NCBI GenBank assembly: GCA_963708295.1
Contig: CAVPSJ010000007.1
Coordinates: 96,001-160,000, forward strand
Source: an uncultured delta proteobacterium
Lineage (GTDB): Bacteria > Desulfobacterota > BSN033 > UBA1163
DNA length: 64,000 bases
Direction of reading: 5' to 3'
Every line of letters begins with the position of its first letter. Position 1 is the first letter of the stretch. The position numbers and the translations under genes were made by a program. The notes below the pieces were generated by a model that saw nothing but the letters and a program-made list of their open reading frames with translations, did not search any database and was not told the origin of the DNA. This document shows, one piece after another, positions 1,287 to 55,029 of the stretch.

Positions 1287-1304
1287 TGTTCACTATAGTG
1301 AACA
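1287..1304. promoter_or_regulatory. palindromic operator, copy 1 (TGTTCACTATAGTGAACA), probable IclR-family site
   Basis: Perfect 18-bp palindrome; four related copies occur in the same region. Confidence 0.75.
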
Positions 1305-1351
1305 TCTGTATAATAATTTTATATATTGAATTCAGTACTTGTAAAAAAAGC

Positions 1352-1379
1352 TTGACAAACAAGAATTATATGCTAATAT
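1352..1379 (+). promoter_or_regulatory. sigma70-type promoter of the ferredoxin/AOR-like/anchor operon
   Basis: TTGACA-16 bp-TAATAT with an extended TG, in an AT-rich intergenic region. Confidence 0.65.
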
Positions 1380-1393
1380 TGATTTTAATAAGT

Positions 1394-1411
1394 TGTTCAC
1401 TATAAGGAACG
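1394..1411. promoter_or_regulatory. palindromic operator, copy 2 (TGTTCACTATAAGGAACG)
   Basis: Near-match to copy 1, just downstream of the -10 box (repressor position). Confidence 0.7.
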
Positions 1412-1429
1412 AATGCGGAGGTTATTCAG

Positions 1430-1903
1430 ATGAGCGCCATCTCCATCATTCCGGAACGATGTACTGGATGTCAATCCTGCGAAATGGCTTGCAGTCTCTC
1501 CCATGAGGGCTCTTGCAGTTCTTCCCTTTCGCGGATACGCATGAAGAAGTGGGAGGAGATATCCGTCTTCATCCCCACCGTCTGCCAGCACTGCGAGAAA
1601 CCCCCTTGCATGGATATCTGCCCGACGGGCGCCCGAAAGCGCGCCCCCGGAACCGATGCGATGGTAACGGACGAGAAACGATGCGTCGGCTGTAAGTCCT
1701 GCATTTATGCCTGCCCTTATGGTGCTCCGGCGATTCACCCTGCGACCAAGCGGACCATGACCTGCGACCTGTGCAAAGGCTCACCCGTCTGCACCCAGGT
1801 CTGCACCTCCGGTGCGCTTTCTTATATCCCTGAAGGAGATCCCTCGATGGAAAGGAAGAGGGCCTTCGGGCAAACCCTTTTTCATTCTATGAAAACAAGA
1901 TGA
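1430..1903 (+). CDS. 4Fe-4S dicluster protein (DmsB/CooF/AorA-like electron-transfer subunit)
   Basis: Four Cys groups: CTGCQSCEMAC, CQHCEKPPCMDICP, CVGCKSCIYACPYG, CDLC..C...C. RBS GGAGG. Confidence 0.9.
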   Translation: MSAISIIPERCTGCQSCEMACSLSHEGSCSSSLSRIRMKKWEEISVFIPTVCQHCEKPPCMDICPTGARKRAPGTDAMVTDEKRCVGCKSCIYACPYGAPAIHPATKRTMTCDLCKGSPVCTQVCTSGALSYIPEGDPSMERKRAFGQTLFHSMKTR

Positions 1904-1915
1904 GGAGGCACGGAC

Positions 1916-3427
1916 ATGGTCAAAGGATGGACAGGAAAAAGACTTCGCATCGATCTCAGCCTGCGGAAAGCATGGTCTGAGGATATTCCTTCGGGCGAGC
2001 TTCGTCAGTGGTTCGGCGGAAGAGGACTCAATGCCTCTTACTTCTCTCAACATTTCCAAACCCCGATCTCCCCTTCTTCCCCGGATAATCCGATCGCCTT
2101 TGCCGTGGGCCCCTTGACAGGAACCCTGGCCCCTTGTTCCGGATGGACGAGCATCGCATCCTTCTCACCCTTGTCAGAATTCCCCGTCTATGGTTTCACC
2201 CGGATGCCCGGTCACTTTGGAGCCTCTTTGAAAGCGGCGGGGTTTGACCAGTGCATCATCCAGGGAAAGGCGAATCGACCTGTCTCTCTTTGGATTGACA
2301 ACGGAGACGTCAAGTTCGAAAAAGCAGATCATCTCTGGGGGAAGGAGACCATTGAGACCGCAGTCACCCTTCAGGAGGAAAAGGGCGATCGAAGCATTGA
2401 GGTACTCTGCATTGGACCTGCAGGAGAGGGACAGATCCCTTTTGCCAATGTCATCCATCGTCTTTCCTGGACAGGGGACTTTCTCGGGTTGGGATACCTT
2501 TTCGGAGTGAAACAACTTAAAGCCATTGCGATCCGGGGAAAAAAACCGGTGGCCCTTCAGTATCCCCAGCAGTTCCTCAACCTCTGCCTCGCCTTAAAAG
2601 ACCAGATTCAGAAGGGGCAAAAGATGCGGAAGGTGAAAGAAGAGGGAGCGCTCTCTCTCCTTCGCCCAGAGGAAAGAGGAGATACAACAGAAGGCAATCG
2701 ATGGTTTTCTCCCGGCATGGAGAAACAATGGGCCGCCTCTTTATGGGCTAATCTCTCTGGCCGCGAAGGCTGCTTCTCATGTCCCGTTCATTGTGGCCGG
2801 AATATCCAGGATCAAGAAAAGTGTTTGGGCGGAGTTCATCTTGAGAAGGCATGGGATTTCGGACCCCAAATCGGCGTCTACAGCGGGGAGTGGACCTTGA
2901 AGCTTCAGCGTTTCTGTCAGGCCCAAGGCCTCGACCCTTTCCTGACGGCTTCTCTTCTGGGTAGGATCATGGAGGGGGACGAAACCGGAACTTTCTCAGA
3001 GAAAGATCCGAAGGGTACGGATGGTATTGAAGATCAAGGAGAAAAGGCCTTCACCCTTTTGTGTCGAATGATCGCCGGAGGCAAGAAGGAATTTCCTCTC
3101 TTCGCCCCTTCAACTTCCGAAAATGAAGACCTCGATATCCTGGCAGATGTCGTCTCATTTTGTATGATCGTGGTAAACCGCCTTAATCTGATGACAGTGT
3201 CAAATATTATCGACTTGATCAACGGAGCCACAGGGTATGCCCTAACGATTGAAGACCTGCAGGGTACGATTTCCCGTATTCGTCAAATGGAATCTCGCCT
3301 GCAGAACAAGAAAATTCATTGGAATGATCAATCCACCCTTCTCCATCTGGGGAAAGGTCAGATCAGTCAGATTTTGAGAAAGGAGGAACGTCGCAATGTA
3401 TCCATCCCTAACCGGACCGCTTCCTAG
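1916..3427 (+). CDS. aldehyde:ferredoxin oxidoreductase (AOR/WOR) family protein, shortened and degenerate
   Basis: AOR N-domain motifs (GWTGKRLRIDLS, FGGRGL, GPLTGT, LKAAGFD, IGPAGE, KQLKAIA) and GCFSCPVHC are present. GRGGxGAVMGSK, GPEYE and RGxxH are absent. Only 503 aa. Confidence 0.8.
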   Translation: MVKGWTGKRLRIDLSLRKAWSEDIPSGELRQWFGGRGLNASYFSQHFQTPISPSSPDNPIAFAVGPLTGTLAPCSGWTSIASFSPLSEFPVYGFTRMPGHFGASLKAAGFDQCIIQGKANRPVSLWIDNGDVKFEKADHLWGKETIETAVTLQEEKGDRSIEVLCIGPAGEGQIPFANVIHRLSWTGDFLGLGYLFGVKQLKAIAIRGKKPVALQYPQQFLNLCLALKDQIQKGQKMRKVKEEGALSLLRPEERGDTTEGNRWFSPGMEKQWAASLWANLSGREGCFSCPVHCGRNIQDQEKCLGGVHLEKAWDFGPQIGVYSGEWTLKLQRFCQAQGLDPFLTASLLGRIMEGDETGTFSEKDPKGTDGIEDQGEKAFTLLCRMIAGGKKEFPLFAPSTSENEDLDILADVVSFCMIVVNRLNLMTVSNIIDLINGATGYALTIEDLQGTISRIRQMESRLQNKKIHWNDQSTLLHLGKGQISQILRKEERRNVSIPNRTAS

Positions 3428-4340
3428 ACCATCTTACTTGAGGCTTCTTGAATATCAGAGACAAAGGATGGTGTTCCCGGCATATGCCGCAGATTTACCT
3501 CTGCTCCTTTTCATCTTCTTTTCACGGATTGCGGCTGGACTTTCCATCCTTTCGGTCGTTTTCCCTCATTCTGTTCTCTGGACGGGCTTGGCCCTTGGCT
3601 GCATGGGTTTGGCAACCGCTGCCTCCATTACGCATCTCACGGTGCCGACGCGTTTTTTTGCCATGATCATCAATCACCGTTCGCCTCTCGTCTGGGAAGT
3701 CCGTTTGGCGGGGGCCCTGACCGCTTCGCTCGGGGCACAGGTTTTATCTGGCCTAGGGCTTCTTCCGGGTTTCGGGGTTGTTCTCCCCTGGGCCAGCCTT
3801 TCCCTGGCCATCCTTTTCTTAATTTCAACCGGATGGGCTTATCAATTCTCCACACACCCCGCCTGGAAAACGAACATTCTCTTCGGCTATTATCTGGCTT
3901 CGGCTTCAATGACGGGATTTGCACTTTACTCCATCACATTCCCGAACCCCTTTTTTCGTCTCGTCACCGTGACTCTCCTATGCGCACAGGGTTTTCTCAT
4001 TCTTCTTTATCTGAACCATCTGTGCAAAACATCGTGGACCTCACTGAAAACGATCGATTCAGGCAGAGACCGAAGGATTTCGATGGCATTTCTCGGATCT
4101 GTCCTTCTTCTCCCCGCTCTGATTACTTTCACCCCACTCTTCACGGAAAATCTGGGGTTATTTTCAGCAGTTCTGGCATTGAGCAACGGGGTGGGAATTG
4201 TTTTTGAGCGGATTCTCTTCTTCAGGTTGGAGCAACCCGTCTTTTTCCTTTCCAGGGGTCAACATCCAGAAGCGACGACGATCAAATTCGATACGGCATT
4301 GGCAGGCGATACGGCGAAGCTTAATGCAGAGATTCTTTGA
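3396..4340 (+). CDS. DmsC/NrfD-like polytopic membrane anchor subunit
   Basis: About 8 hydrophobic segments; ASITHLTVPTRF...SPLVWEV and a terminal ERILFF resemble the DmsC motifs HLGxPxRa..SxLSxE and ERxxF. Confidence 0.7.
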   Translation: MYPSLTGPLPRPSYLRLLEYQRQRMVFPAYAADLPLLLFIFFSRIAAGLSILSVVFPHSVLWTGLALGCMGLATAASITHLTVPTRFFAMIINHRSPLVWEVRLAGALTASLGAQVLSGLGLLPGFGVVLPWASLSLAILFLISTGWAYQFSTHPAWKTNILFGYYLASASMTGFALYSITFPNPFFRLVTVTLLCAQGFLILLYLNHLCKTSWTSLKTIDSGRDRRISMAFLGSVLLLPALITFTPLFTENLGLFSAVLALSNGVGIVFERILFFRLEQPVFFLSRGQHPEATTIKFDTALAGDTAKLNAEIL

Positions 4341-5079
4341 TCTCCCGGGCAGCCTCTTGTACTTCTCGGATCACCGTCTTCACTTTCTGATCATCCAGCG
4401 TAGAGGTAAAACCGACCACCCATAAGGCCGCCGGAGGCGAGGAACGCAAGACCAAGGGGGCAGCCACCGCCCGGACGCCGGGGATGTATTCTTCGTCGTC
4501 TACGGCGTGTCCTTGCGCTTTCACTTTTTCAATCTCTCTGAGAAACTGTCTCTGATCGATCACCGTCTTCGACGTGTAACGGGCCAAGCCCTTCCTCTGT
4601 ACCATTTCTCGTGCCTTCTCTTTCTCTATCTGTGAAAGAAGGACTCGACCGGTCGCCCCTGCGAGAAGGGGAAGCCTCGTTCCGGGAGGAGAGGTGATTT
4701 TCATCTCGTTCCGGGATTCGACCATATCGACAATGGTAACGTGGTCTCCGTTTAAAACCCCCAGAAAAACGGTCTCCCCCACTTTCGCCATTAACTTCTC
4801 CATTGGCTTTCGGGCTAAATCCTTGAGATCGATCTTTGCGTAGGCGGTCCTGCAGAGTTCCAGGAGACTGTAGCCTACCGTATACCGCTTTTGAAGGGGG
4901 TCACGAACCAGAACGCCCAACTCTTCCAGGGCCGTGGTGATCCCATGAACAGTGCTCTTTCCTATCTTCAGTTTCTTTGAGAGATCACTTATGCCCAGAC
5001 CGCTTGAGGCATCTGAGATTGCATAAAGAATCTTAAAAGCTTTCTTGACCGAAGGCGCCGAATAAGTAATTTTTTTCAT
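4321..5079 (-). CDS. IclR-family transcriptional regulator
   Basis: SVKKAFKIL N-terminus, HTH (ISDLSKKLKIGKSTVHGI), GETVFLG, GTRLPLLAGATGRV, DDEEYIPGVRAVAAP. Confidence 0.93.
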   Translation of the reverse strand: MKKITYSAPSVKKAFKILYAISDASSGLGISDLSKKLKIGKSTVHGITTALEELGVLVRDPLQKRYTVGYSLLELCRTAYAKIDLKDLARKPMEKLMAKVGETVFLGVLNGDHVTIVDMVESRNEMKITSPPGTRLPLLAGATGRVLLSQIEKEKAREMVQRKGLARYTSKTVIDQRQFLREIEKVKAQGHAVDDEEYIPGVRAVAAPLVLRSSPPAALWVVGFTSTLDDQKVKTVIREVQEAAREIKESLH

Positions 5080-5104
5080 GGATTCGCCGACTTGAACTTT
5101 TTGA

Positions 5105-5134
5105 AAGATATCAGATTCGTATCGCCCCTGTCAA
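5105..5134 (-). promoter_or_regulatory. sigma70-type promoter of the IclR gene
   Basis: Minus strand TTGACA-18 bp-TATCTT with an extended TG. Confidence 0.5.
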
Positions 5135-5592
5135 TAGATCCTCATCGTTTGGGCAGTTTCCGTCCTTCCTAGCCAGGAGACTAGACAACCCTCTCTCCGA
5201 AGACTTCATCACGCCAGCTTCAGACGTATCACGGCACCCATCCCCTCCCGATCCCAGAGATTTTTCTCTCTTTTGGAAATGAATCTCATCCCTCCCGGGC
5301 TTATCTTCGGGTTTGATTCCAATATCAGTGAAGATGACTCATCCCGTTCCAATACAACCGCATACTACTGCTTTGGCCGGAACGTGCCCCTTGGCCTCGT
5401 CTTGAAGGGGAAGCTAAGCGGCGCAATACAAATGAGAGTACATTCCCTTGCGGCAGGAGCGCCGCTCTTGGCGGCAAACTTCCCAACTTGCCTGTCCATG
5501 CCCCTCCCACCTTCTTATTCCTCCGTGGTTTGAAAAACTACGACACGTCAAGCTTTCCACTGTTTTTTCTCAAGGCTCCGCTTTTCAAAATC

Positions 5593-5620
5593 TTGACAAA
5601 AGGATTGTATGTGATATGAT
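5593..5620 (+). promoter_or_regulatory. sigma70-type promoter of the NrfD/ferredoxin operon
   Basis: TTGACA-16 bp-TATGAT with an extended TG. Confidence 0.7.
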
Positions 5621-5636
5621 TAACTGCAATTTAGCT

Positions 5637-5654
5637 TGTTCACTCTGAAGAACT
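5637..5654. promoter_or_regulatory. palindromic operator, copy 3 (TGTTCACTCTGAAGAACT)
   Basis: Same GTTCAC..GAAC frame and a similar position after the -10 box as copy 2. Confidence 0.65.
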
Positions 5655-5743
5655 CTCGACCTTCTTGCAGAGCAGACGAGGCATCGAGGAAAGAATCCGT
5701 GATTTAGTCCAGAAGACACCTATTCTTAATCTGGGGGACAGGA

Positions 5744-6790
5744 ATGGCGGCAGAAAATATTAATCCCATGAGAAACGTACGGCATCTCAGGCCACAAAAA
5801 GAATGGAAGGAGATTATTGCCCTTTACCTTTACCTTGCAGGCATGGGTGCCGGCTCTTTTGTCATCGGTACGCTGATCAGCTGGATCGCCCCCCGACTCG
5901 CCCCTCCTTTCCTCTCCTCCATCACTCTCTTCGGCTATTCCCTCAACCTTTCAGAGGTCCCGATTTTTTGGGGACCGATCATGGTTGCCATCGGCGCGCC
6001 GTTTCTTATTTTTGACCTGGGAATCAAATGGAGATTTATGTATGCGTGCTTGAATCCCAGAACCTCCTGGGTGGCCCGTGGGTTTATCATCCTCTCCATC
6101 TTCATCGTTTTGGGACTGATTCTCCTTGCTAAATCCATTCTTCCGTTTGACTGGCTCCATGCAAATTCCCCCCTGTGGCGAATCCCCGAGGTCATTGCGC
6201 TGGTCTTCGCTTTCGCGACCGCCATTTACACCGGAATCCTGTTAAAGGCGACGAAATCGGTCCCTTTGTGGAATACCCGTCTGCTCCCCATCCTCTTTCT
6301 GGTATCTGCACTCTCCACGGGGTCCATGTCTATCATCCTTTCCACTTTGGGAAGCGGTTTTTTCCCCCACGACGCCGGACCCCTGAAAGTCTTGATGGTT
6401 GGAGAACAAGTTCTGGTGGTGATTGAAGGAATCGTCCTTTATCTTTTCCTTTCCCGGAGATACAGGGCTGCGGAACAGGGAAAAGAATCGGTGCGTCTTC
6501 TTCTATTTGGCGAGATGAAAATGATCTTCTGGGGAGGAGTGGTCTTGCTGGGTTTCATCTTCCCCGTCGTCCTTGAATCTATTGCGTCATTCTTTCCTGG
6601 AAATTTTGTGTTGATCTTTACTGCCGGCGTCTTTCTGCTCTGTGGCGGGTTTTTCCTCCGGCTCGGTATCCTTCACGCCGGAATCAAGGATCAGATTCCG
6701 ATGCATCGGCTGATGGAAATCCAATATAACATGTTGGCTGGCAGAACGAAGGCCTTCGCAGGAGGAAAACTGAATTCCCCGGAAGCATAA
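5744..6790 (+). CDS. NrfD/PsrC-family membrane anchor (quinone-interacting subunit)
   Basis: W..IALYLYLAGMGAG, FDLG....F, SWVARG, YTGILL....VPLWNT..LP.LFLVSALSTG, GGFFLR are all NrfD signatures. Confidence 0.9.
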   Translation: MAAENINPMRNVRHLRPQKEWKEIIALYLYLAGMGAGSFVIGTLISWIAPRLAPPFLSSITLFGYSLNLSEVPIFWGPIMVAIGAPFLIFDLGIKWRFMYACLNPRTSWVARGFIILSIFIVLGLILLAKSILPFDWLHANSPLWRIPEVIALVFAFATAIYTGILLKATKSVPLWNTRLLPILFLVSALSTGSMSIILSTLGSGFFPHDAGPLKVLMVGEQVLVVIEGIVLYLFLSRRYRAAEQGKESVRLLLFGEMKMIFWGGVVLLGFIFPVVLESIASFFPGNFVLIFTAGVFLLCGGFFLRLGILHAGIKDQIPMHRLMEIQYNMLAGRTKAFAGGKLNSPEA

Positions 6791-6915
6791 GAGATCTTAC
6801 AGGGAGTAAACACGGGATTGCTGATGTGTTCTTTGTGAGTCGCAAGACTTCTCAATCTCATGAATGATGGTCGTTTGCGCGAATCACGATTCCAGCAAAA
6901 AGAGGGAGGAAAGTA

Positions 6916-7401
6916 ATGGACCAAAAGGTATTGGTCGTCGATCAGCAAAGGTGCACGGGATGCCGTCTGTGCGAGTTGGTGTGCTCGGTGTTTCATACAG
7001 GAACAAGCAATCCAAGTCGCGCGCGGGTCAAAATTATCAAGTGGGAGGATGAGGGATTATACCTTCCCATGGCCTGCAATCACTGCGAGAAAGCCTATTG
7101 CGTCGAGGTTTGCCCGACAAAGGCTTGTCATCGGGAGTCTGAAAATAATAATCGGGTGACCATCGACAAAAATTTGTGCATTGGATGCAGGACCTGCATC
7201 ATCGCCTGCCCCTTTGGCCATCCTTTCTTCGATACCCAGGAACGGGTCACCGTGAAATGCGATTATTGTGACGGAGATCCGCAGTGTGTTCGCTTCTGTG
7301 ATATCAAGGCCATCTCTTTTACGGATGCAGACAAGACAAACGTGGTCAAAAAGCGAGAGGCTGCGTTGAAGTTTAGAAAATCGATCAATCCGCCAAGATA
7401 G
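6916..7401 (+). CDS. 4Fe-4S dicluster protein (AOR-associated)
   Basis: CTGCRLCELVC, CNHCEKAYCVEVCP, CIGCRTCIIACPFG, KCDYCDGDPQCVRFC. Close paralogue of 11439..11948. Confidence 0.9.
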   Translation: MDQKVLVVDQQRCTGCRLCELVCSVFHTGTSNPSRARVKIIKWEDEGLYLPMACNHCEKAYCVEVCPTKACHRESENNNRVTIDKNLCIGCRTCIIACPFGHPFFDTQERVTVKCDYCDGDPQCVRFCDIKAISFTDADKTNVVKKREAALKFRKSINPPR

Positions 7402-7404
7402 CCG

Positions 7405-7436
7405 ACACCCTGCTGCCCTCCGCGGCAGGGTGTTTT
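7405..7436 (+). terminator. intrinsic terminator
   Basis: ACACCCTGCTGC-loop-GCGGCAGGGTGT followed by TTT, immediately after the stop codon. Confidence 0.65.
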
Positions 7437-7495
7437 ATAAAACCTCCTGGTCGCTTCGTTGCCTTCCTCAACCGCTTACGTACGGCAGCTTTTCA

Positions 7496-7524
7496 TTGAA
7501 CCCGTTTCCCAAATGTGACATAGT
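7496..7524 (+). promoter_or_regulatory. putative promoter giving a leaderless transcript of the radical-SAM gene
   Basis: TTGAAC-17 bp-CATAGT with an extended TG. Predicted +1 falls on the ATG at 7531, which has no SD sequence. Confidence 0.45.
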
Positions 7525-7530
7525 AAAAAC

Positions 7531-8847
7531 ATGATCTTCTTCACGCACCATACGAGCGAGCCTCATGGAATATTAGGGGCTCAAGTGGCGGCAACGTTCT
7601 TCGCTCGAAAACTCTTGATACCCGCCATCGTCGTCGGGATCGAGCGGAGCTTCTCGAGCGACCGGCTCCTTCGTTTCGTGGATGAATACTACGCAGGAAA
7701 GCAAAAGATCGCGGCCTTTTCACATCTCTGTGGTAGAAAAGATCTCATGAAACTGATTCAGGAGCTGAAGCAGAAGGGGTTCATCACTCTCCTGGGGGGA
7801 CCGCAGTCCCGTCAGGATTATGTCGGCGAGCCAGATGCGAACTCGCATCCACACCGGTTCGGAGGGCTGAAATCCGCGGTCGATATCGCCTTTCATGGCC
7901 CGGTGAATCTCCTCAAACCCGAACATCTGGAAGGGGGGCAAGTGCTCCTCGATTACCCGTGGACAAACAACATCTTCCTGGAGGTTGACTGGTCGAACAT
8001 CTATACGTTCTCCGACACCCCGCGGAAGCTTGATGTTAAGATGGGACAAGTGCTGAATACGATCGGCTGCGCGTACGCCTGCAAGCCTCAGACAATAATT
8101 CTTCCGCCGCCGACTGACCTCCGCGAAAAAGGTGTTGCGGAATTTGAAGTTCGGAGCGAAGGATGCATTTTCTGCGACGTCTCACGGGATAAGGGTTACC
8201 ACGGCGCCTTAGATCGTGACAGGCTTATGGCTCAAATTGAAGGGCTTCCTGAGGTTGACGGAAGAAAGATTCCCTTTGAACTGATAGATGAATATCCCAT
8301 TCGCTCTCTCGGAAAGCTGATCGAGGACGCTCAACGCCATGAGATCAAGCTATCGCAGATCAACCTGGTCTGTCGGGTCGACGACGTCAATGTGCATGCC
8401 TCCGACCTCCCGGAAATCCTTTCCCTCGCAAGAAGTGAGGATATAAAAATCATGTTTTCGTCGATCGGGTTTGAATCGTTCAGCGATCGGTTGCTTCAAT
8501 ATTTCTGTAAAGGGATTTCCGTGGAAGACATCGTGAAATGTGTCGAAACGCTGCGCCGATTGAAAGACCGGTACGGCAGCACCTTCCTCTACCGACGGGA
8601 TGAGGGGGCAAATCACGGTTTTATTCGTCCCACGCCCTGGGATGACAGCGAAACGATGCAGGAAGTGGACAGAAATATATTTCTCCACCGGTTCTTTGAA
8701 GATATTCTTCCCGAACACAGCACTCCCCTCATCATACACCACGCGTCTTACCTTGGAGACTGGATCCGTCAGATCGAATCGGCAACAGACATCACGTTCA
8801 GCAGGGAGGGCACCTGGATAGAATGGTGGAACCCATCCTTCAGATAG
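7531..8847 (+). CDS. radical-SAM-like protein with a B12-binding-type N-terminal region and an atypical Cys motif
   Basis: LLGGPQ, GCAYAC-X26-GCIFC, SIGFESFSDRLL...KG.SVEDI, HGFIRPTPW parallel the GGxH, CxxxCxxC, GxES and FIxGxP motifs of B12-dependent radical SAM enzymes. Confidence 0.7.
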   Translation: MIFFTHHTSEPHGILGAQVAATFFARKLLIPAIVVGIERSFSSDRLLRFVDEYYAGKQKIAAFSHLCGRKDLMKLIQELKQKGFITLLGGPQSRQDYVGEPDANSHPHRFGGLKSAVDIAFHGPVNLLKPEHLEGGQVLLDYPWTNNIFLEVDWSNIYTFSDTPRKLDVKMGQVLNTIGCAYACKPQTIILPPPTDLREKGVAEFEVRSEGCIFCDVSRDKGYHGALDRDRLMAQIEGLPEVDGRKIPFELIDEYPIRSLGKLIEDAQRHEIKLSQINLVCRVDDVNVHASDLPEILSLARSEDIKIMFSSIGFESFSDRLLQYFCKGISVEDIVKCVETLRRLKDRYGSTFLYRRDEGANHGFIRPTPWDDSETMQEVDRNIFLHRFFEDILPEHSTPLIIHHASYLGDWIRQIESATDITFSREGTWIEWWNPSFR

Positions 8848-8899
8848 GAAGAGGATGAATCGGGATGACCCAGCGAAGGATGCCCTCGTCTTGTCAGAA

Positions 8900-8917
8900 G
8901 GTTCACTATCGTGAACA
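8900..8917. promoter_or_regulatory. palindromic operator, copy 4 (GGTTCACTATCGTGAACA)
   Basis: Two mismatches to copy 1; lies upstream of the AOR operon promoter. Confidence 0.75.
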
Positions 8918-9068
8918 TTCTCCCCAACGCAAGCTGGATGTCGAGAAAGAAACGACCAATTCGTACAAATAATTACTCATTCTTGAAAACTCTTACCCAA
9001 TCGATAGCCGGGCTTTAAACTTTAAAAACCTGCTTAGATATCCATAGGTTATAAAAATAAAGTTTGTC

Positions 9069-9097
9069 TTGACAAAGAGGTGAATTTCGTTTAATAA
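9069..9097 (+). promoter_or_regulatory. sigma70-type promoter of the Zn-ribbon/AOR/ferredoxin operon
   Basis: TTGACA at 9069 followed by an AT-rich -10 region (exact hexamer ambiguous). Confidence 0.5.
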
Positions 9098-9119
9098 GAA
9101 GTTGTAGTATTTTTTTAGC

Positions 9120-9137
9120 CGTTCACCATTATGAACG
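9120..9137. promoter_or_regulatory. palindromic operator, copy 5 (CGTTCACCATTATGAACG)
   Basis: GTTCA-N6-TGAAC core, downstream of the promoter. Confidence 0.7.
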
Positions 9138-9207
9138 CGTCTCGGAGCACGACGGAGACCTGAAGCCCATCTATCATTCATCTTCTGCCTTAAGAAAGGA
9201 GGTTGTC

Positions 9208-9489
9208 ATGGGGACCGAGAAAGAAGGACTTTCAACAGCCGAGAGCCTACGGAGTACCCGTACATACGGCCAGGTGAGGTGCCATAATCCCAGTTGCATG
9301 GGAAGACTTCAGCCGAAACCTGGAGAACCTACAGTGAAATGTCCTGTTTGCCATTTGGAATGGCGTGTCGCCTGGGTCAAGGATGGTTTTCCCCGCATCA
9401 GAGGTCCGGTGTGGGAGGTGAATAAGAGATTAGCCGATGAGGAGTATGCGAGAAAAATGAAGGAGGTTAAGAAAGATGGCCCTAAATAG
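9208..9489 (+). CDS. small Zn-ribbon-like protein, translationally coupled to the AOR gene
   Basis: Strong RBS AAGGAGG; CHNPSC...CPVC; 3' end overlaps the AOR start. Confidence 0.75.
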   Translation: MGTEKEGLSTAESLRSTRTYGQVRCHNPSCMGRLQPKPGEPTVKCPVCHLEWRVAWVKDGFPRIRGPVWEVNKRLADEEYARKMKEVKKDGPK

Positions 9490-11416
9490 GAAGCTGGCAA
9501 TTATTGATCTCTCGACAGGTAAAATAGAAGTCAAGTCCATCCCGATTGAGGTCCGCAAGAAATTCTTGGGAGGCCGGGGACTCGATGCCTATCTGCTTTA
9601 TAATCACACAAAACAAGGATGTGACCCTCTTGGCCCTGACAACACAGTCATGGTGAGTGGCGGGGCTTTGTGCGCCACGCTGGCTTCAGCAACCTCGAGA
9701 TGCCATGTCATGGCTAAATCACCCCTCGGAGGCATGCTGGGGAGTTGCAATATGGGAGGGTTCTTCACTCCGGAGTTGGCCTGGGCAGGTTTCCATCATC
9801 TCGTCATCAAGGGTAAGGCAGAAAAACCTGTCTACCTGTGGATCCACAATGGCAAAATTGAGATCCGCGATGCCAAAAACATTTGGGGAAAAACGGTCAC
9901 GGATGCTCAATGGGCGATCCGGGATGAGCTGGGGGATGAGGACGTCAAGAGTTTGATGATCGGTCCGGCCGGTGAAAATCTCGTCAGATATGCCAATGTC
10001 ATGACCGGAATTAAGAATTCAGGCGGAAGGACCGGGATGGGAGCGGTCATGGGCTCAAAGAATCTGAAGGCTGTTGCTGCCCGCGGAACCATGGATATAA
10101 AAATCGCCCATCCGAAGGAAGCCCTCGAATATAACAAGCGCTTTATTGAGCAGATCACGAGCGCAAAGGTGAATCAAACCCAGGGAACCCTCGGGACCCC
10201 CTTTATCTGGGGAGCCACCAACTCCTGGGGGGGGGTCCGGACCAGAAACTTTCAGTATAACCAAATGCTCTACTGCGATGAAGTTGAGCCGGAATCGATC
10301 GACGACAATTGTACAGAGACGATCGGCCCCTATCACATGACAGGCTGCTTTGGCTGCCAGGTTCACTGCCGGGCCAAGTACAAGATTCCTACCGGGCCGT
10401 ATGCGGGAAAATATGATGAGGGCCCCGAATATACTTCCCAGGGCGCTTTTTCCTCAGAACCAGACATCCCAAGTCTCGAAAACCTGTTGGTGGCGAATCA
10501 CCTGGTCGATCAGTGGGGTGTGGACAATTTGGAGATCGGAAGCCTTATTTCTTGGGCGATGGAACTCTATGAACTGGGAATTCTTACCAACAAGGAGACC
10601 GATGGCCTCGAGTTGCGGTTTGGCAGCAGCGAGGCGCTTCTGGAGATGATTGAGCGAATCTGCTTCAGAAAGGGCTGGTTGGGTAATGTCTTGGCGGAAG
10701 GGGGAATTATCGCTTCCGAAAAGATTGGAAAGAATTCTTTCGACTATCTGATTCAAGTGAAAGGGGTTAGCAATCTTCATTCCGATGAGCGGGCCACCCC
10801 TGCCCTAGCGCTCAACATTGCAACGGCTTCCCGCGGCTCAGACCATTTGAGAAGCCGTCCGGCCATCGACCTGTATCATTTACCGCAAGCAGTGATGAGA
10901 AAAATCTACAGCAGCCCGGTGCCTTACGATGGGCCCTTGAGCTCGGAACATACGGAATACATCGGCAAGCCCTGGCAGGTCTTCTGGCATGAGAACTGTT
11001 ACATGGGGGTGGATTCGATGGGCATCTGTAAGTATCACACCACCTTTCTGGGCGCGACGCTTCCCAACTTTGAAGATTGGTCCAGGGTGCTTTACTACAA
11101 TACTGGACTGGAGCTGACTCCCCGGGAAATCTGGGACGCTGCCGTGCGATCTAACATGATGGAGCGACTCTTTAACCTTCGCGAAGGATTGACGAGATAC
11201 GATCTCAAAAAGGGCGATATGCTCAATCACCGCTACTTTGATGAGCCTGCTCGGAGGGGTGCCCTCGACGTGGTCGGGAGGGTCATCGATCGGGAAAAGT
11301 TCGAAAAGATGGTTGACGAACTGTATGAATATAAGGGACTGGATAAGAATGGCGTTCCGAAACCTGAAACGCTCAAGAAGCTTGGCCTGGAAAAAGAACC
11401 ATCCCACTTGCTGTGA
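9476..11416 (+). CDS. tungsten-dependent aldehyde:ferredoxin oxidoreductase (AOR/WOR) family catalytic subunit
   Basis: FLGGRG, AKSPL, IGPAGENLVRYA, GGRTGMGAVMGSKNLKAVA, GCFGCQVHC, EGPEY, SRGSDHL, DSMGIC, G.DKNGVP..ETLKKLGL. Confidence 0.92.
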   Translation: MALNRKLAIIDLSTGKIEVKSIPIEVRKKFLGGRGLDAYLLYNHTKQGCDPLGPDNTVMVSGGALCATLASATSRCHVMAKSPLGGMLGSCNMGGFFTPELAWAGFHHLVIKGKAEKPVYLWIHNGKIEIRDAKNIWGKTVTDAQWAIRDELGDEDVKSLMIGPAGENLVRYANVMTGIKNSGGRTGMGAVMGSKNLKAVAARGTMDIKIAHPKEALEYNKRFIEQITSAKVNQTQGTLGTPFIWGATNSWGGVRTRNFQYNQMLYCDEVEPESIDDNCTETIGPYHMTGCFGCQVHCRAKYKIPTGPYAGKYDEGPEYTSQGAFSSEPDIPSLENLLVANHLVDQWGVDNLEIGSLISWAMELYELGILTNKETDGLELRFGSSEALLEMIERICFRKGWLGNVLAEGGIIASEKIGKNSFDYLIQVKGVSNLHSDERATPALALNIATASRGSDHLRSRPAIDLYHLPQAVMRKIYSSPVPYDGPLSSEHTEYIGKPWQVFWHENCYMGVDSMGICKYHTTFLGATLPNFEDWSRVLYYNTGLELTPREIWDAAVRSNMMERLFNLREGLTRYDLKKGDMLNHRYFDEPARRGALDVVGRVIDREKFEKMVDELYEYKGLDKNGVPKPETLKKLGLEKEPSHLL

Positions 11417-11438
11417 TTTCTTTGAAAGGAGAAAGTGA

Positions 11439-11948
11439 ATGGAATCCATGGGTAAAGTACTTGCGATCACTCCGGAAAAGTGCACCGGATGTAGGCTTTG
11501 TGAACTCGTCTGCTCGGTTTTTCATGACGGCGTCTCCAACGCGGCCCGAAGCCGCATAAAGGTTATGAAATGGGAGACAGAAGGACTCTATATCCCCATG
11601 TCCTGCCAGCAGTGTCAGGATGCTCCCTGTATGTCGGTTTGCCCCGTAAAAGCCATCTCCCGGGATGAGAAGCTCAGCCGGGTGATGGTTGATCACAACA
11701 TTTGCATCGGCTGCCGTTCTTGTGTGTCGGTCTGCCCCTTTGGCGCGATGAATTTCAGTGTCATTGACCGAAAGAATTTCAAATGTGACCTTTGTGACGG
11801 AGATCCGCAGTGCGTTCGTTTCTGTGATATGAAGGCTGTGGACTACGTGGAGGCTGACCGGGTGAGTATCGCCAAGAAGAGAGCTGCTGCCGAAAAAATC
11901 ACGATCGCTCAGAGGCAGGCCGTCGCCTTAGAGTCAGAATCGCACTAA
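11439..11948 (+). CDS. 4Fe-4S dicluster protein (AOR small subunit)
   Basis: Four ferredoxin Cys groups; directly follows the AOR gene. Confidence 0.9.
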   Translation: MESMGKVLAITPEKCTGCRLCELVCSVFHDGVSNAARSRIKVMKWETEGLYIPMSCQQCQDAPCMSVCPVKAISRDEKLSRVMVDHNICIGCRSCVSVCPFGAMNFSVIDRKNFKCDLCDGDPQCVRFCDMKAVDYVEADRVSIAKKRAAAEKITIAQRQAVALESESH

Positions 11949-36798: not shown

Positions 36799-39579
36799 AT
36801 GGACCCATTGAAACACACCCGGCCACCTCTTCAAGGAAAGGCAGACGAATACCTCCAGCTGTCAGACGGTGGAGCGACTTGGTACCGCCTCGACCTTCAT
36901 CTGCACAGCCCCGGCGTCCTGACCTTTATGCCCCCGAAAGGGAGGAAGCGTGAAGACGGAATAGGTCTCTCGGACGTCTATATTGAGCAACTCTCAACTC
37001 AAGGAATTTCCCTGGCTGCCATCACGGACTACAATGGAGTAAACATCGAATGGTTTGAAGTGACGGCAGCGAAGGCGAGTAACCGTGGCATCACACTTTT
37101 GCCCGGGGTGGAGATGACCTTCAGACAATACAAATATGGCCTCCACATATTGGCGATCTTCGCCGGCGATACCGACCTGAATCGCTTGAACACTTATCTT
37201 CGGTCGCTCGATAAAGACCCCACCACCCCTTTGTTTGACAACCTTGGGTCTCATCGGGACATTGATCTGAAAACCAGCTTGACAGAAACCCTGAAAGACT
37301 TGCGGAGCCAGTTCAACTGCCTGTTGATCCTCCCCCATCCTGATCAGACAAATGGCATTTGTAAAAGTCTCACCGCCGAAGTGGCCGCCAAACTTCTGAT
37401 GGAGATAGGACCCGATGCCATCGAATATTGTCCGGAAAAAGAAAAAAGCAAACTTCAGTCGACGGGCATTCTGCCGGCAGACTTCTGGGATCAGGTCGCT
37501 TCCGTGGAATTCTCCAACCCGAAACGGATAGAAGAGATTGGGACACAACACCGAACGAATGGAACCCTTCGGGCGACCTACCTGAAACTCAGCGCAACAA
37601 ACTTGGACGCCCTGCGGCTAGCGCTTCACACTCCGCAGACCCGTTTGTCCGTCGGTGGGATTCCTCCTGCGAATCACCCAAGAATCAGAAGTGTTGCCGT
37701 CTCAGGGTCCGGTTTCCTTGGAAATCTGAATATATCTTGGAACCCGGATCTCAATGTCATTATCGGAGGCAAGGGTGTGGGTAAATCCGCCATTCTCGAA
37801 GCCCTCCGCTATGCGTTTGCCATGCCCCCCTATTCCGATCAATCTTCCCGCAAAGAACTCGTTGGGAGATCTCTCGGAAGTGACGGCAGGGTTGAGGTCA
37901 TCCTGGACAGGCCTATCCGGGAAGGAAAAATCCGTCAGTATCGCATCGTCCGAGCATGGGGCGAAGAACCTCAAACCTTTCAAGTTAACCCTGAAAAACC
38001 ACTCAAGGCAAGCCCTTCTGATCTCCTGACTCCAGATGGCGGGCTAACGGTCTTCGGACAACACGAGATGAATGCCGTTTCTGGAAGCCAAGACCAACGA
38101 CTTGCGTTCCTGGATGAATTGCTGGGTGAGCAGGCTCGCAAATGCGCGGACGCTGTTGATAAGGCCATGGAATCAGTCACCCATAACGCCGCTGCGATCC
38201 AGGATCTCCAGGCACGGCTGACGAGACGGGATGAATATTCCCGACGGCTTAAAGAAATCGACCATGAGATCGAAACCCTTAAAGACCACGGCCCAGAAAG
38301 GCCGGAGGAAGGGGCCGGTTCTCCCTCCATGGCAGGATGCTTGAAGAATGCGACCAATGCCCTCAGAAGTGCTTCATCGGATTGTGATCAATGGCGCCTG
38401 AACCTTCTTGCATTACTGGAAAAGACTCACCGAACCCTATCAGAGGTGGAGGACAAACCGTCACCCATCCTGCAAGAGGCTGCCAAAGTTCTCTCTGTTC
38501 TTGAGGAAAGTTTGAAGGTGGTCCTAGACGATCAAACAACCCTTTTTGAACAAGCGATACAAAGTTTGGCGCGTCTGGATATGCGGCTACAAGAAAAACT
38601 TCGCGCGTCGGGTGCAGGAGCCAACAAAATTGAAAAGAGCGCAAAAACAGAACCTCCAGGTCAAGACCGAATCTTAAAGTTAACGCAGGAAAGAACCTCC
38701 CTGTCATCCCTTTTCGCTGAGTTCAGCGGGATCGAAGATCGCTTGAAAGCCCTGACACAAGAACGGCGAGGGCTTCTTCAGCAGTTCAGGGACTGCAGAT
38801 CCAAGCAGAATGGATTACGGAAAGAGATAACAGATATTATTGCAGAATCCCTGAACGGTCGAGTCCGTCTCCGGGTAGAATTTAAGGGACAAAAGGATGG
38901 TTACAAAGGGGAGTTATCGCGTGTCTTAAAAGGATCAAACATCGCTCAGGGGGTAATCGATCAGCTTGTTCTCCCAGAAGCCACAGACGGTATTACCCTC
39001 GCCGAAGCCGTGCGAGCAGGAAGCAAGGAAGTCCAAACCGTTTTTGCCCTGACCTCTGAGATGGCGGACCGCTTGATCCATTGGCTGACCGCTGGGGAAT
39101 CTCGGCTCCTCCAACTGGAGGCATTCATCCCTCAGGATGCCCTTCGTCTGGAAATGAAGATTGACGGCCAATATCGGTCTCTTGAACATCTGTCCACAAG
39201 CCGGGGGGCCATAGAGATATTGCTTCTTCTGCTCGGCCTAAAGAGTCAGATTCTCGTCGTTGACCAACCGGAGGACTACCTCGACGACCGATCCATCCAT
39301 GAAGAGATTCTACAGATTCTTAGGGAGCAAAAAGGGTTGAATGGCCAAAGCCCGCAGCATCAGATCATCTTTGCAACAAATGACGCCACCATTCCCCTGA
39401 TGGGCGATGCCGAACTCGTAATTCCTTTGGAGGTCAGAAGCGATCGTGCCCATATCATCAGCCAGGCCTCCAACGACGATCGCTCCATGCAGGAGGTCAT
39501 CAGGACCCTCATGAAGGGCGGGAAAGAGGCGCTTCAAAAGCGCGTGAAGAAATACGGCGGATTAACTCCTGGCGCATAA
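36799..39579 (+). CDS. PHP-domain / coiled-coil ABC-ATPase fusion (Ppl/TrlF-like) with degenerate catalytic motifs
   Basis: DLHLHSP, ITDYN, PGVE, H.LAIF (PHP); IIGGKGVGKS, FGQ, long coiled coil, VVDQPEDYLD, IFATND, MKGGKEA. Confidence 0.85.
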   Translation: MDPLKHTRPPLQGKADEYLQLSDGGATWYRLDLHLHSPGVLTFMPPKGRKREDGIGLSDVYIEQLSTQGISLAAITDYNGVNIEWFEVTAAKASNRGITLLPGVEMTFRQYKYGLHILAIFAGDTDLNRLNTYLRSLDKDPTTPLFDNLGSHRDIDLKTSLTETLKDLRSQFNCLLILPHPDQTNGICKSLTAEVAAKLLMEIGPDAIEYCPEKEKSKLQSTGILPADFWDQVASVEFSNPKRIEEIGTQHRTNGTLRATYLKLSATNLDALRLALHTPQTRLSVGGIPPANHPRIRSVAVSGSGFLGNLNISWNPDLNVIIGGKGVGKSAILEALRYAFAMPPYSDQSSRKELVGRSLGSDGRVEVILDRPIREGKIRQYRIVRAWGEEPQTFQVNPEKPLKASPSDLLTPDGGLTVFGQHEMNAVSGSQDQRLAFLDELLGEQARKCADAVDKAMESVTHNAAAIQDLQARLTRRDEYSRRLKEIDHEIETLKDHGPERPEEGAGSPSMAGCLKNATNALRSASSDCDQWRLNLLALLEKTHRTLSEVEDKPSPILQEAAKVLSVLEESLKVVLDDQTTLFEQAIQSLARLDMRLQEKLRASGAGANKIEKSAKTEPPGQDRILKLTQERTSLSSLFAEFSGIEDRLKALTQERRGLLQQFRDCRSKQNGLRKEITDIIAESLNGRVRLRVEFKGQKDGYKGELSRVLKGSNIAQGVIDQLVLPEATDGITLAEAVRAGSKEVQTVFALTSEMADRLIHWLTAGESRLLQLEAFIPQDALRLEMKIDGQYRSLEHLSTSRGAIEILLLLLGLKSQILVVDQPEDYLDDRSIHEEILQILREQKGLNGQSPQHQIIFATNDATIPLMGDAELVIPLEVRSDRAHIISQASNDDRSMQEVIRTLMKGGKEALQKRVKKYGGLTPGA

Positions 39580-40890: not shown

Positions 40891-41634
40891 TTACTCCTTT
40901 TTCGCTGAAGACCCGCAATGATCACAATTCGGGTTTTTGTCGAGTCTGAATTCGCTGAACGTCACCTTCAACCCATCGTATATCAATAACCGATTGGTCA
41001 GCAGTTTACCAATCCCCACGAAATACTTGATCACCTCCGTCGCCTGAATACTCCCGATGACAGCCGGAGCAACGCCAATCACCGGAAACTTTTCTTGCGG
41101 CACAAGACCTCGATACATACACCTGAGGCAGGCTGTCTTTCCCGGAAGGACGGTCATGACCCTCCCCTCAAACCCATTGACTGCGCCGTGAAAAAATGGA
41201 ATATTCTTCTCAATAGCACAGCGATTCAAGACGTAGCGAGTCGGCAGGTTGTCCATGGCATCCACGATGGCATCGCAGTCACCCACAAGTTCTGAGACAT
41301 TTCCTTCCGTAATGGTCTCTGCGATTGCCTGGATCTCCACCATCGAATTCAGGTTCCTCAATTTCGCTCTGGCAGAGTCCACCTTTTTTCTGCCGACGTC
41401 TTCTTCCCCGTGCAAAACCTGCCTGTTCAAATTGCTGAGTGCCACGCGGTCATGGTCGACGACCCGAATCATTCCTATTCCGGCAGCGGTCAGGTAGAGG
41501 GCAATGGGAGACCCGAGCCCTCCAGCACCCGCAATGACCACCCGTGATCTTTTGAGTTTCCCTTGCCCTTCTTGTCCAAACTCTCGGATCAAGATTTGCC
41601 GATCATACCTCTCTCGCTCGCTCGGCGTCAGCAT
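40891..41634 (-). CDS. moeB: MoeB/ThiF-family adenylyltransferase
   Basis: ERYDRQ, GAGGLG, D.V.LSNLNRQ, DAMDN, CLRC, CDHC. Confidence 0.88.
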   Translation of the reverse strand: MLTPSERERYDRQILIREFGQEGQGKLKRSRVVIAGAGGLGSPIALYLTAAGIGMIRVVDHDRVALSNLNRQVLHGEEDVGRKKVDSARAKLRNLNSMVEIQAIAETITEGNVSELVGDCDAIVDAMDNLPTRYVLNRCAIEKNIPFFHGAVNGFEGRVMTVLPGKTACLRCMYRGLVPQEKFPVIGVAPAVIGSIQATEVIKYFVGIGKLLTNRLLIYDGLKVTFSEFRLDKNPNCDHCGSSAKKE

Positions 41635-41813
41635 TGCATTCCTCCATCTTTAAACTTCCGCTCGCTCATGGCTATCCTTCGGCATCCTCCAAGTTCGGGA
41701 TCACGCCCTGCTGCCGGGGAGGTTAATTCCCGAACAAAACCAAATGATAAAATCAAAGGTTCATCGGGGAAACCATGGCGTTGAGGTAGTTTGATATGAG
41801 GTCCTCAATATTG

Positions 41814-41844
41814 TTTTGGATTTCGAATTCCGTATTTAGAATTT
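41814..41844. repeat. 7-bp-periodic intergenic tract
   Basis: ttttgga tttcgaa ttccgta tttagaa ttt. Confidence 0.5.
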
Positions 41845-41883
41845 ATGCCAACGCCGGTTTTAAATCAACAGGCGGATAAGCGC

Positions 41884-43032: not shown

Positions 43033-43048
43033 TTCAAACTCCTTTGAA

Positions 43049-43156
43049 GCCCAAATGTCAAAACCCAACAGCCCTCCTTAACAAAAAAGACTTATGCGTC
43101 AAAAAGCATTTTAGTCCGATGAATTATATTTGACCTTCGGGCTTTGGCATTTAACA
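43049..43156. repeat. inverted pair of 7-bp-periodic tracts
   Basis: gcccaaa tgtcaaa acccaac ... tttgacc ttcgggc tttggca tttaaca. Confidence 0.55.
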
Positions 43157-43170
43157 TTGATTTTAATGTC

Positions 43171-43911: not shown

Positions 43912-44048
43912 TTTCTCAGCATGGGCGGCGAAAATATTTCCAAGAGGTCCGAAATTGCAGAAATTCTAACAGATGGACCCATGGCCGTCAATGAATTTGT
44001 TCGTTTCTGTCACCCACCCCTCATCGACGGGAAAAAGAAAGAATTTCC

Positions 44049-44076
44049 TTGACAAAAGGATATTTCACAGTATGAT
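44049..44076 (+). promoter_or_regulatory. sigma70-type promoter of the IclR/catabolic operon
   Basis: TTGACA-16 bp-TATGAT. Confidence 0.7.
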
Positions 44077-44100
44077 AGATCATTCCATTGAATAAAATCT

Positions 44101-44907: not shown

Positions 44908-44991
44908 AGACCGACGAAACGGGTTGAGCATCCCATCCCTCTCTATCTCCAAGGATCACAGGTCGAAGGCGTTTGTCACGCAGGGGGCCGC

Positions 44992-45771: not shown

Positions 45772-45792
45772 CGCAAGCAAGGAGGACATTGC

Positions 45793-46974: not shown

Positions 46975-46988
46975 GGAGCTTAAGCATC

Positions 46989-48623: not shown

Positions 48624-48663
48624 AGAGCACCATCGTGCCAAACGTCTCACAGGGAGGAAATGC

Positions 48664-54133: not shown

Positions 54134-54174
54134 GATGGAAAAGGGGAGACTCCATGGGTCTCCCCCTTTCCATC
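54134..54174. terminator. hairpin between convergent operons
   Basis: GATGGAAAAGGGGAGAC-loop-GTCTCCCCCTTTCCATC. Confidence 0.7.
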
Positions 54175-54940: not shown

Positions 54941-54965
54941 TTGATTCACCTCCCGTTCTCTTGAG

Positions 54966-55000: not shown

Positions 55001-55029
55001 AGGTAGATCTTACCGGAGCCTAAACTCCC

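Follow-up and report, generated by a model that had tools for sequence, protein, structure and literature searches.

A conserved IclR regulon around an uncharacterised clade of tungsten oxidoreductases, with a putative nanowire and exchangeable electron outlets

The locus described here occupies positions 1287..11948 of a 64-kb stretch of contig CAVPSJ010000007.1 from an uncultured delta proteobacterium (the window, in which position 1 is the first letter), and belongs to a real, conserved IclR regulon, carried by anaerobic sediment bacteria, that surrounds an uncharacterised clade of the WOR family of tungsten oxidoreductases. Its core consists of a Zn-ribbon protein, the catalytic subunit AOR2 and a polyferredoxin (Fd3), and we propose, with a probability of roughly 55%, that the system works like the nanowire oxidoreductases WorSL and AorAB with an exchangeable electron outlet, which here would be a plug into quinone. 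The cluster is a member of no characterised complex; its new elements would be the Zn-ribbon subunit, an inverted NrfD outlet reached through a WorS paralogue, pseudo-AOR adaptors and a set of alternative plugs. All the genes named in a first-pass annotation of this DNA were found where it had placed them, as were the three same-strand units that it had described around the IclR gene, each with the shared operator. The features are as follows.

1288..1303, no strand: IclR operator, a perfect palindrome, distal site of unit 1 (palindrome scan)
1352..1410, plus: sigma-70-like promoter (TTGACA at 1352) with an operator at 1395-1410 just downstream (promoter and palindrome scans)
1430..1903, plus: Fd1, WorS/AorA-type 4x[4Fe-4S] polyferredoxin with a C-terminal helix (37% identical to Fd3)
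1916..3427, plus: AOR1, conserved pseudo-enzyme (Pfam, residue comparison)
3396..4340, plus: DmsC/PsrC-fold membrane anchor with 8 helices, N-terminus predicted to be cytoplasmic (fold search, charge count)
4321..5079, minus: IclR-family regulator (Pfam IclR)
5082..5134, minus: IclR promoter (TTGACA at 5134) with a degenerate operator at 5082-5097 (promoter scan, operator comparison)
5593..5653, plus: sigma-70-like promoter of unit 2 (11/12) with an operator at 5638-5653 (promoter and palindrome scans)
5744..6790, plus: NrfD/PsrC-family anchor with 8 helices and a predicted inverted (N-in) topology (Pfam, fold, charge count)
6916..7401, plus: Fd2, WorS-type paralogue of Fd3 (57% identical), proposed adaptor between nanowire and NrfD
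7413..7432, plus: terminator-like hairpin between Fd2 and the radical SAM gene (hairpin scan)
7531..8847, plus: radical SAM (rSAM) protein with a cobalamin-dependent fold and invariant C180-X31-C212-X2-C215 (model, alignment)
8901..9136, no strand: two operators, at 8901 and 9121, flanking the promoter of unit 3 (TTGACA at 9069, taken from the sequence itself)
9208..9489, plus: Zn-ribbon protein (CxxxxC...CxxC, PRIRGPVW, C-terminal helix; motif, co-folding)
9476..11416, plus: AOR2, the catalytic subunit, from an uncharacterised and highly conserved WOR-family clade (Pfam, alignments, tree)
11439..11948, plus: Fd3, WorS/AorA-type polyferredoxin with a nanowire-type C-terminal helix (structure-database match)

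Results

A conserved core of AOR2, Fd3 and a Zn-ribbon protein

Searching GTDB with AOR2 aligned to 68 of its 120 listed close homologues gave 410 matches, showing the clade to be widespread, and the locus counts given below refer to the best 80 of these. All 80 loci come from metagenome-assembled genomes (MAGs), mostly titled Thermodesulfobacteriota or Deltaproteobacteria and including Syntrophorhabdus, Desulfobacula and Desulfatiglandales. The first-pass annotation had asked whether the neighbourhood is conserved in relatives and had built its reading around the membrane anchors. Conservation holds for the core, since the Zn-ribbon gene is whole in 78/80 loci and Fd3 is present in 79/80, the misses lying at contig ends; it does not hold for the remaining genes, of which the IclR orthologue was found in 59 loci, rSAM in 37, Fd2 in 23, NrfD in 22, and AOR1 with the DmsC-like gene in 8. 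In a FastTree phylogeny of 96 AOR sequences (rooted on YdhV, built without the solved enzymes, rough at depth, and omitting L024 and L043 as partial sequences), all loci with NrfD/Fd2 fall in one clade (support 1.0), where they make up 23 of 36 loci, L024 being assigned by identity; the eight loci with AOR1 and the DmsC-like gene likewise all lie within one clade.

AOR2 (646 amino acids) has the marks of the AOR/WOR family: AFOR_N and AFOR_C domains above the Pfam cut-off, as in AOR1, the four [4Fe-4S] cysteines (C291, C294, C298 and C518, invariant) and N92, D350 (both invariant), R75 and R185 (both in 119/120 listed proteins), to which we presumptively assign pterin- and Mg-binding roles. 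The four cysteines are accompanied in 78/78 loci and 120/120 listed proteins by Thr243, Glu313 and His448 (Pyrococcus furiosus numbering, read from an alignment with solved enzymes). In the excerpts available of PMC12096430, four second-shell residues are defined for aldehyde oxidation, and BamB and YdhV lack them. Of this set AOR2 has the Thr, Glu and His, and it does not have Tyr427 (His in AOR Cf), so that it is neither BamB-like nor quite a classical AOR. A BamB/YdhV-type assignment was tried and rejected on the retained residues, BamB also being the weakest of nine PDB matches. The best solved relative is WorL of 9mqx (E 7e-86), the best plasmid-encoded AOR is 34% identical, and AOR2 separates in the rough tree from the classical AORs of Azospirillum, Thermovirga and Peptoclostridium; within its clade, best-segment identity is 77-99% in 79/80 loci. 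Tungsten is given in the same excerpts as the family default, with YdhV as the exception, and AOR2 most likely carries a bis-pyranopterin tungsten cofactor and one [4Fe-4S] cluster.

All three ferredoxins group with WorS-type and not with NrfC/DmsB-type proteins. Among solved structures, Fd3 and Fd2 match the nanowire subunits 9mqx_E and 8c0z_C best, and the alignment extends into the C-terminal helix, which suggests that these are WorS-type polyferredoxins with a stacking helix, as expected of a nanowire enzyme. A helix of this type can also fold back, as it does in WOR5. In the excerpts of PMC12318220 the helix stacks WorS into a nanowire, and WorA docks there through a C-terminal Zn finger and helix.

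The Zn-ribbon protein as a predicted third subunit

The Zn-ribbon protein has 93 amino acids and no Pfam family, and its stop codon overlaps or abuts the AOR2 start in 73/78 loci. Co-folding of AOR2, Fd3 and the Zn-ribbon protein, with a single copy of Fd3, gave a score of 0.81 against 0.00 for the best of three controls; the mark used is reached by 116/157 solved complexes and 2/215 mismatched pairs, counts that are only roughly valid here. The runs agreed in at least 84% of contacts, with a partner predicted local distance difference test (pLDDT) value of at least 73. In the model, the named contacts of the Zn-ribbon protein are all on AOR2, at residues 238-251 beside Thr241 and at a clade-typical stretch, 468-480. 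We therefore predict that it is a new small subunit, the third, seated on AOR2, and, judged by known AOR structure, the area touched would be the mouth of the substrate channel. A role as a WorA-like adaptor on Fd3 was considered and ruled out by these contacts and by the WorA-type motif, which occurs in 0/77 sequences.

A profile of the family matched 88 clusters, some of them spurious. More distant homologues (P0145, P0155, P0158, P0161 and others) retain RGPVW and may serve other WOR clades.

Membrane anchors with a predicted inverted topology

The NrfD protein scores 112 bits against the NrfD Pfam model (cut-off 25.8), and its domain, fold and eight helices are those of an NrfD/PsrC anchor. 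The DmsC-like protein has no Pfam match of note (1/8 homologues, E 0.0036), and its model (pLDDT 72.6) has its strongest fold matches in ActC and PsrC (E 2e-4 to 7e-4). A hidden Markov model (HMM) of its family fails to recognise E. coli DmsC, so that the label depends on these fold matches and on an alignment judged by eye. Searches of PDB sequences with the rSAM, DmsC-like and NrfD family profiles found nothing significant.

Lys and Arg are strongly biased to the N-terminal side in both families, at 19.2 versus 3.7 for NrfD (18/18 proteins) and 14.8 versus 0.9 for the DmsC-like protein (8/8), whereas the E. coli references show the reverse (NrfD 5 versus 12, DmsC 4 versus 8). A simple pattern scan found a Tat-like motif (twin-arginine translocation) in 0/341 partner proteins. 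The predicted topology is therefore not that of a periplasm-facing anchor, with its N-terminus outside and a Tat-exported partner. In the excerpts of PMC6303296 the quinone site of the NrfD/PsrC family lies on the side of the Fe-S partner, so that an inversion would bring both to the cytoplasm. Tyr28 of NrfD is invariant and aligned, in our alignment, with the essential Tyr23 of Wolinella PsrC. Of the cytoplasm-facing, quinone-linked complex proposed in the first-pass annotation, the orientation thus gains support and the quinone link is plausible in this lineage.

Alternative electron modules as proposed exchangeable outlets

Another electron module was found in 27/80 loci, mostly under the same operator and never together with NrfD/Fd2. 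These are a TmcC/HmcE-FeS fusion (9 loci), HdrA-HdrA-HdrC (7), MetV/MetF with a small ferredoxin (MetV in 9 loci, the ferredoxin in 8) and a NarI-like protein, labelled from the motifs seen, with a Rieske protein (2); in L080 there is a further ferredoxin together with a flavoprotein of the FAD/NAD type, an arrangement known from AorC-type systems. A CxxCG...CxxC/H tail that reads like the tail of WorA is present in 8/9 TmcC-FeS, 7/7 HdrC, 8/8 MetVF-linked ferredoxins and 2/2 NarI-like proteins, compared with 5/1070 other open reading frames (ORFs). In a strict HMM test, the TmcC tail finds both HdrC (E 2e-8) and a WorA homologue (E 3e-4).

Directly after Fd3, two loci (L009:12718-15881 and L016:12705-16495) carry a ferredoxin, a degenerate AOR, the NarI-like protein with its Zn-finger tail and the Rieske protein. 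At L071:20750-21517 and in L054, a WorA homologue (E 2e-39 to 9mqx_A) follows a Mo/W-bis-pyranopterin guanine dinucleotide (bis-PGD) enzyme, a ferredoxin and a GltD-like flavoprotein; this may be another nanowire system.

A shared operator and its probable IclR regulator

We searched the 64-kb window for GTTCAC-N4-GTGAAC with up to two mismatches and compared the result with 100 shuffles. There are six matches, five at 1288, 1395, 5638, 8901 and 9121 and a weak, distant sixth, against a chance mean of 1.94 per window, six being reached in 1/100 shuffles. Taken alone, the window gives only moderate evidence; the relatives make the case for a shared operator decisive. In the 1.31 Mb of DNA examined from the 80 loci, the exact core GTTCA-N6-TGAAC has 135 copies, spread over 58/80 loci, where about 1.25 are expected at uniform base frequencies, and it precedes the IclR gene, the Zn-ribbon/AOR2 unit and whichever electron module is present, so that the co-regulation claimed in the first-pass annotation is supported. 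Paired operators about 107 bp apart recur in the relatives. In the window the degenerate operator stands three bases before the IclR start codon, and most relatives have a good match at the same site, which suggests that IclR regulates its own gene.

Three of the operators lie downstream of TTGACA promoters, immediately so at 1352 and 5593 and also at 9069, the geometry of a repressor. In an NCBIfam scan no model matched IclR above its cut-off (best BhcR, 158 versus 350), and hence no effector could be inferred. The rSAM gene, which the first-pass annotation had counted in the co-regulated system, has no operator of its own and stands 3' of the terminator-like hairpin, a type of element common in the window (27 found, 14 expected).

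AOR1, a maintained pseudo-enzyme

AOR1 has at least 120 homologues, mostly of about 503 amino acids and 61-89% identical. Among the 120 listed, the four Fe-S cysteines are kept in every one, while pterin-binding and second-shell residues are replaced (Arg76 by Trp in 107, Asn93 by Arg in 106, Arg182 by Trp in 120, Glu313 by His in 115) or, in the region of His448, deleted. The first-pass annotation had counted two AOR enzymes; this stands for AOR2, with its catalytic residues, and fails for AOR1, in which the pterin-binding and catalytic residues are lost across the listed homologues. A decaying pseudogene is likewise ruled out by the replacements that they share, and AOR1 would, judged by its residues, be a maintained Fe-S-bearing scaffold. 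Its placement in the FastTree phylogeny is weakly supported (0.605). Other degenerate AORs, each with an extra ferredoxin, occur on separate branches of the tree (L061/L065/L070/L073 and L009/L016). In the closest relative (L001:184-3053), frameshifts interrupt every gene of unit 1 (Fd1, AOR1, DmsC-like), through sequencing error or decay of the unit.

The radical SAM protein and an EutA-like ATPase

The rSAM protein scores 23.8 bits against the Pfam Radical_SAM model, below the cut-off of 29.5, and has no match to a Pfam B12-binding domain. Its model (pLDDT 92) matches cobalamin-dependent enzymes over its whole length, with a Rossmann-type cobalamin domain, a barrel and the three cluster cysteines, and so predicts an rSAM enzyme of the cobalamin-dependent type. 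It resembles OxsB, MgmA, TsrM and CysS in whole-length fold (OxsB Z 21.4, root-mean-square deviation (rmsd) 4.0, 367 residues aligned; MgmA Z 19.9, rmsd 3.6, 318 aligned); it differs in sequence (9-16% identity) and in its CX31CX2C motif, and AprD4 and MiaB match it alike (Z 19-20). The gene lies directly after Fd3 in several Desulfobacterales loci, and its distances follow those of AOR2 (Spearman 0.68), a correlation that common ancestry by itself could produce. We tentatively suggest, as a speculation that we would not back at even odds, that it is a maturase of the enzyme and not a step of a catabolic route.

An EutA-like ASKHA ATPase is encoded in 16/80 loci (for example L056:2865-4310), often directly after Fd3 and without eutBC nearby, and is possibly a cobalamin chaperone for the rSAM protein.

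Gene neighbours and substrate class

The gene neighbours point to aromatic catabolism. Genes of the dch/had/oah type neighbour the cluster in 17/80 loci, pad-like genes stand beside L050 and L075, and genes for a PaaK-like ligase, UbiD/UbiX and a phosphoenolpyruvate (PEP) utiliser lie near other loci; in the loci scanned for the operator, none of the aromatic-catabolism genes is preceded by it. AOR2 would most likely oxidise an aldehyde, or a compound resembling one, that arises in the cytoplasm during aromatic or acyl-CoA catabolism.

In L050 and L075, a pad-like phenylacetate cluster (PadG/I/E-like proteins, a DmsB-like protein, an 869-residue molybdoenzyme and an NrfD-family anchor) lies upstream of IclR and adjoins the AOR unit. 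At 54173-57520 (minus strand), the window itself carries dch-, oah- and had-like genes (benzoyl-CoA pathway); their counterparts in L021 and L022 score above the NCBIfam cut-offs, and in close relatives such genes adjoin the AOR cluster.

Further features of the window include a large chemotaxis and two-component region directly 3' of the cluster (12078-36508), with several methyl-accepting chemotaxis proteins (MCPs), two CheA, CheR and CheB, whose position beside AOR2 is not conserved except partly in L001 and L030. A 926-residue protein (36799-39579) resembles what we take to be a PHP domain fused to an ATPase, and positions 40891-49518 hold another catabolic unit (ThiF/MoeB, an acyl-CoA dehydrogenase, a second IclR 28% identical to the first, a flavin oxidoreductase and a CoA ligase). 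Upstream, LivF ends at 896. The first-pass annotation had supposed that the substrate is imported by this Liv transporter, an idea that we discarded, since a close LivF homologue occurs in 2/80 loci and no operator precedes the Liv genes of L003, L007 and L028; the operon to which LivF belongs here begins outside the window.

Discussion

A model of the system and its relation to known complexes

In the model that we favour, an IclR repressor would bind the paired GTTCA-N6-TGAAC operators, whose conservation is observed and whose occupancy is suggested by their position, until an effector releases the three units. Unit 3 would yield the enzyme, AOR2 with Fd3 and the Zn-ribbon subunit seated on AOR2, and AOR2-Fd3 protomers would, by homology with WorSL and AorAB, stack through the C-terminal helix of Fd3 into a short Fe-S nanowire that ends in an exchangeable plug. 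Fd2 would join the wire and pass electrons to the inverted NrfD with its cytoplasm-facing quinone site, while Fd1 and the cofactor-less AOR1 may together make up another adaptor protomer, this one serving the DmsC-like anchor. A redox loop could be fed by menaquinone that takes up cytoplasmic protons on reduction. In other lineages the same enzyme would be plugged into HdrA/HdrC, MetVF, a TmcC-type cytochrome b or a flavoprotein.

An Azospirillum locus that we take to be of the U-type has Nuo-like subunits where NrfD is found here. U-type WORs (clade 87, uncharacterised) have, in the excerpts of PMC12318220, WorSL genes beside a membrane quinone-related module. The closest solved system, WorABCSL of Acetomicrobium mobile (9mqx; PMC12318220, in excerpt), gave the best matches of AOR2, Fd3 and Fd2 and shares the WorS-type C-terminal helix, and a WorA-like Zn finger and helix is also found on outlet subunits of relatives of the present locus; it differs in its BfuABC genes, which the cluster lacks (a WorA-like gene lies near 2/80 loci), whereas the present system has a different WOR clade, an extra Zn-ribbon subunit on the catalytic chain, a membrane outlet and a pseudo-AOR. 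AorABC of Aromatoleum aromaticum (8c0z) also combines a catalytic subunit with a filament-forming polyferredoxin that ends in an outlet module (PMC12096430, in excerpt), but that outlet is the FAD/NAD subunit AorC, where we find an NrfD-type anchor, and Tyr427 is not kept here. The E. coli operon ydhYVWXUT likewise joins an AOR-family gene to two Fe-S proteins and a membrane redox subunit; YdhU, however, is a cytochrome with a helix pattern unlike that of the present anchors, and YdhV differs from AOR2 in preferring Mo, having a Cys ligand and lacking, according to the excerpts of PMC12096430, the second-shell residues. Among DMSO-reductase (bis-PGD) systems, SoeC of SoeABC is an NrfD/PsrC-like anchor with cytoplasmic partners, as proposed here (PMC5114278, in excerpt), and QrcB of QrcABCD, which is homologous to a catalytic subunit but carries no cofactor, stands next to an NrfD-family anchor (PMC6303296, in excerpt), whereas the partners here are AOR-family and WorS-type proteins.

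The cluster thus differs from each known system compared and matches none of them. The first-pass annotation had regarded an AOR with a membrane anchor as unusual; the ydh operon and the U-type WORs provide precedents for the pairing. Its suggestion of a possibly undescribed module stands, in that no published account of the cluster was found in the literature searched, most subscription papers lying outside that search, and the parts available of PMC5109826, PMC11887813, PMC13416013 and PMC9424855 give no function for the AOR2 clade.

Points against the model and alternative readings

Several observations weigh against the nanowire-and-plug model with a quinone outlet. Sending the electrons of an aldehyde straight to menaquinone wastes energy, going by redox values. 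The topology is based only on eight hand-set helices and the positive-inside rule, and Fd2 lacks the C-terminal extension of NrfC-type partners. Outside the NrfD clade, 19/44 loci show no electron module within the DNA examined. The tails of the MetVF-linked ferredoxins and NarI-like proteins share the motif, but the strict HMM test did not connect them with the other tails, and the motif also scored in 7/7 HdrA and 3/9 MetV, probably via Fe-S cysteines. In AOR2, P. furiosus Tyr427 corresponds to Ser436 in 78/78 loci, with His435 adjacent in 77/78, and Arg182 aligns with Asn, so that the reaction may differ from standard aldehyde oxidation. As 16 of the 17 loci with dch/had/oah neighbours come from one clade, that association may be inherited synteny. 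The counts cover the best 80 of the 410 matches, and the literature searched held no experiment on any member of the system.

The strongest alternative, which we consider rather unlikely, keeps the architecture and changes the chemistry: AOR2 would act on something other than an aldehyde, be it a CoA ester, a methylene or aromatic carbon that it hydroxylates, or a sulfonate (compare WOR5/ASOR), and possibly as a reductase fed by quinol, methyl-tetrahydrofolate or HdrA. The replaced Tyr427 with its neighbouring His fits this, position 427 being also altered in ASOR (PMC12096430, in excerpt), as do the strong conservation of AOR2, a dedicated subunit predicted to touch AOR2 next to the active-site Thr241, partners of middling potential (quinone, MetVF), and the dch/had/oah, pad-like, PaaK-like and UbiD/UbiX neighbours. 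The Thr, Glu and His of aldehyde oxidases are, however, all retained, unlike in BamB and YdhV, and the second ferredoxin and AorC-like flavoprotein of L080 suit a low-potential donor.

Quite unlikely, in our view, is a set of co-regulated but separate modules, with AOR2, Fd3 and the Zn-ribbon protein forming a soluble ferredoxin-linked enzyme while NrfD-Fd2 and Fd1-AOR1-DmsC act as ferredoxin:quinone modules or work with a catalytic protein whose gene lies elsewhere. The units have their own promoters, NrfD is missing from 58/80 loci, and its distances do not track those of AOR2 within the clade (Spearman 0.05, compared with 0.62-0.68 for rSAM, IclR, the Zn-ribbon protein and Fd3 over a wider set). 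Such independence sits poorly with an Fd2 that is a close Fd3 paralogue with the stacking helix, with an NrfD-Fd2 pair that still carries the operator where it has moved apart from AOR2 (L002, L004, L005 and L017, for instance), and with the mutual exclusion of this pair and the other electron modules. Removal of acetaldehyde during ethanolamine use, suggested by the EutA-like gene of 16 loci and its frequent place after Fd3, is very improbable, given an EutA score below the NCBIfam cut-off (389 versus 598) and no EutB/EutC match in the window or among the neighbours scanned (cluster representatives, and most single ORFs of at least 200 amino acids).

Beyond the nanowire model itself, a bolder version that we regard as unlikely would make AOR2 a three-subunit tungsten enzyme whose reaction is new to the family and whose substrate, for example a CoA ester, arises in anaerobic aromatic degradation, with the rSAM protein as maturase, the EutA-like protein as cobalamin chaperone, and freely exchanged plugs. 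Among these, the inverted NrfD would be the first quinone plug of its kind, and adaptors of the pseudo-AOR type would have arisen more than once.

Significance

A physiological function is known for only 4 of 92 WOR clades (PMC9424855, in excerpt), and the AOR2 clade is highly conserved and present in aromatic-degrading anaerobes such as the Desulfobacula, Desulfatiglandales and Syntrophorhabdus MAGs. The operator and its IclR regulator offer a direct route to the substrate through the effector. If the model holds, the locus would add a new small subunit and a pseudo-enzyme to the family, and would widen the nanowire-and-plug principle, seen so far with NAD-linked or bifurcating outlets, to include quinone, Hdr and MetVF.

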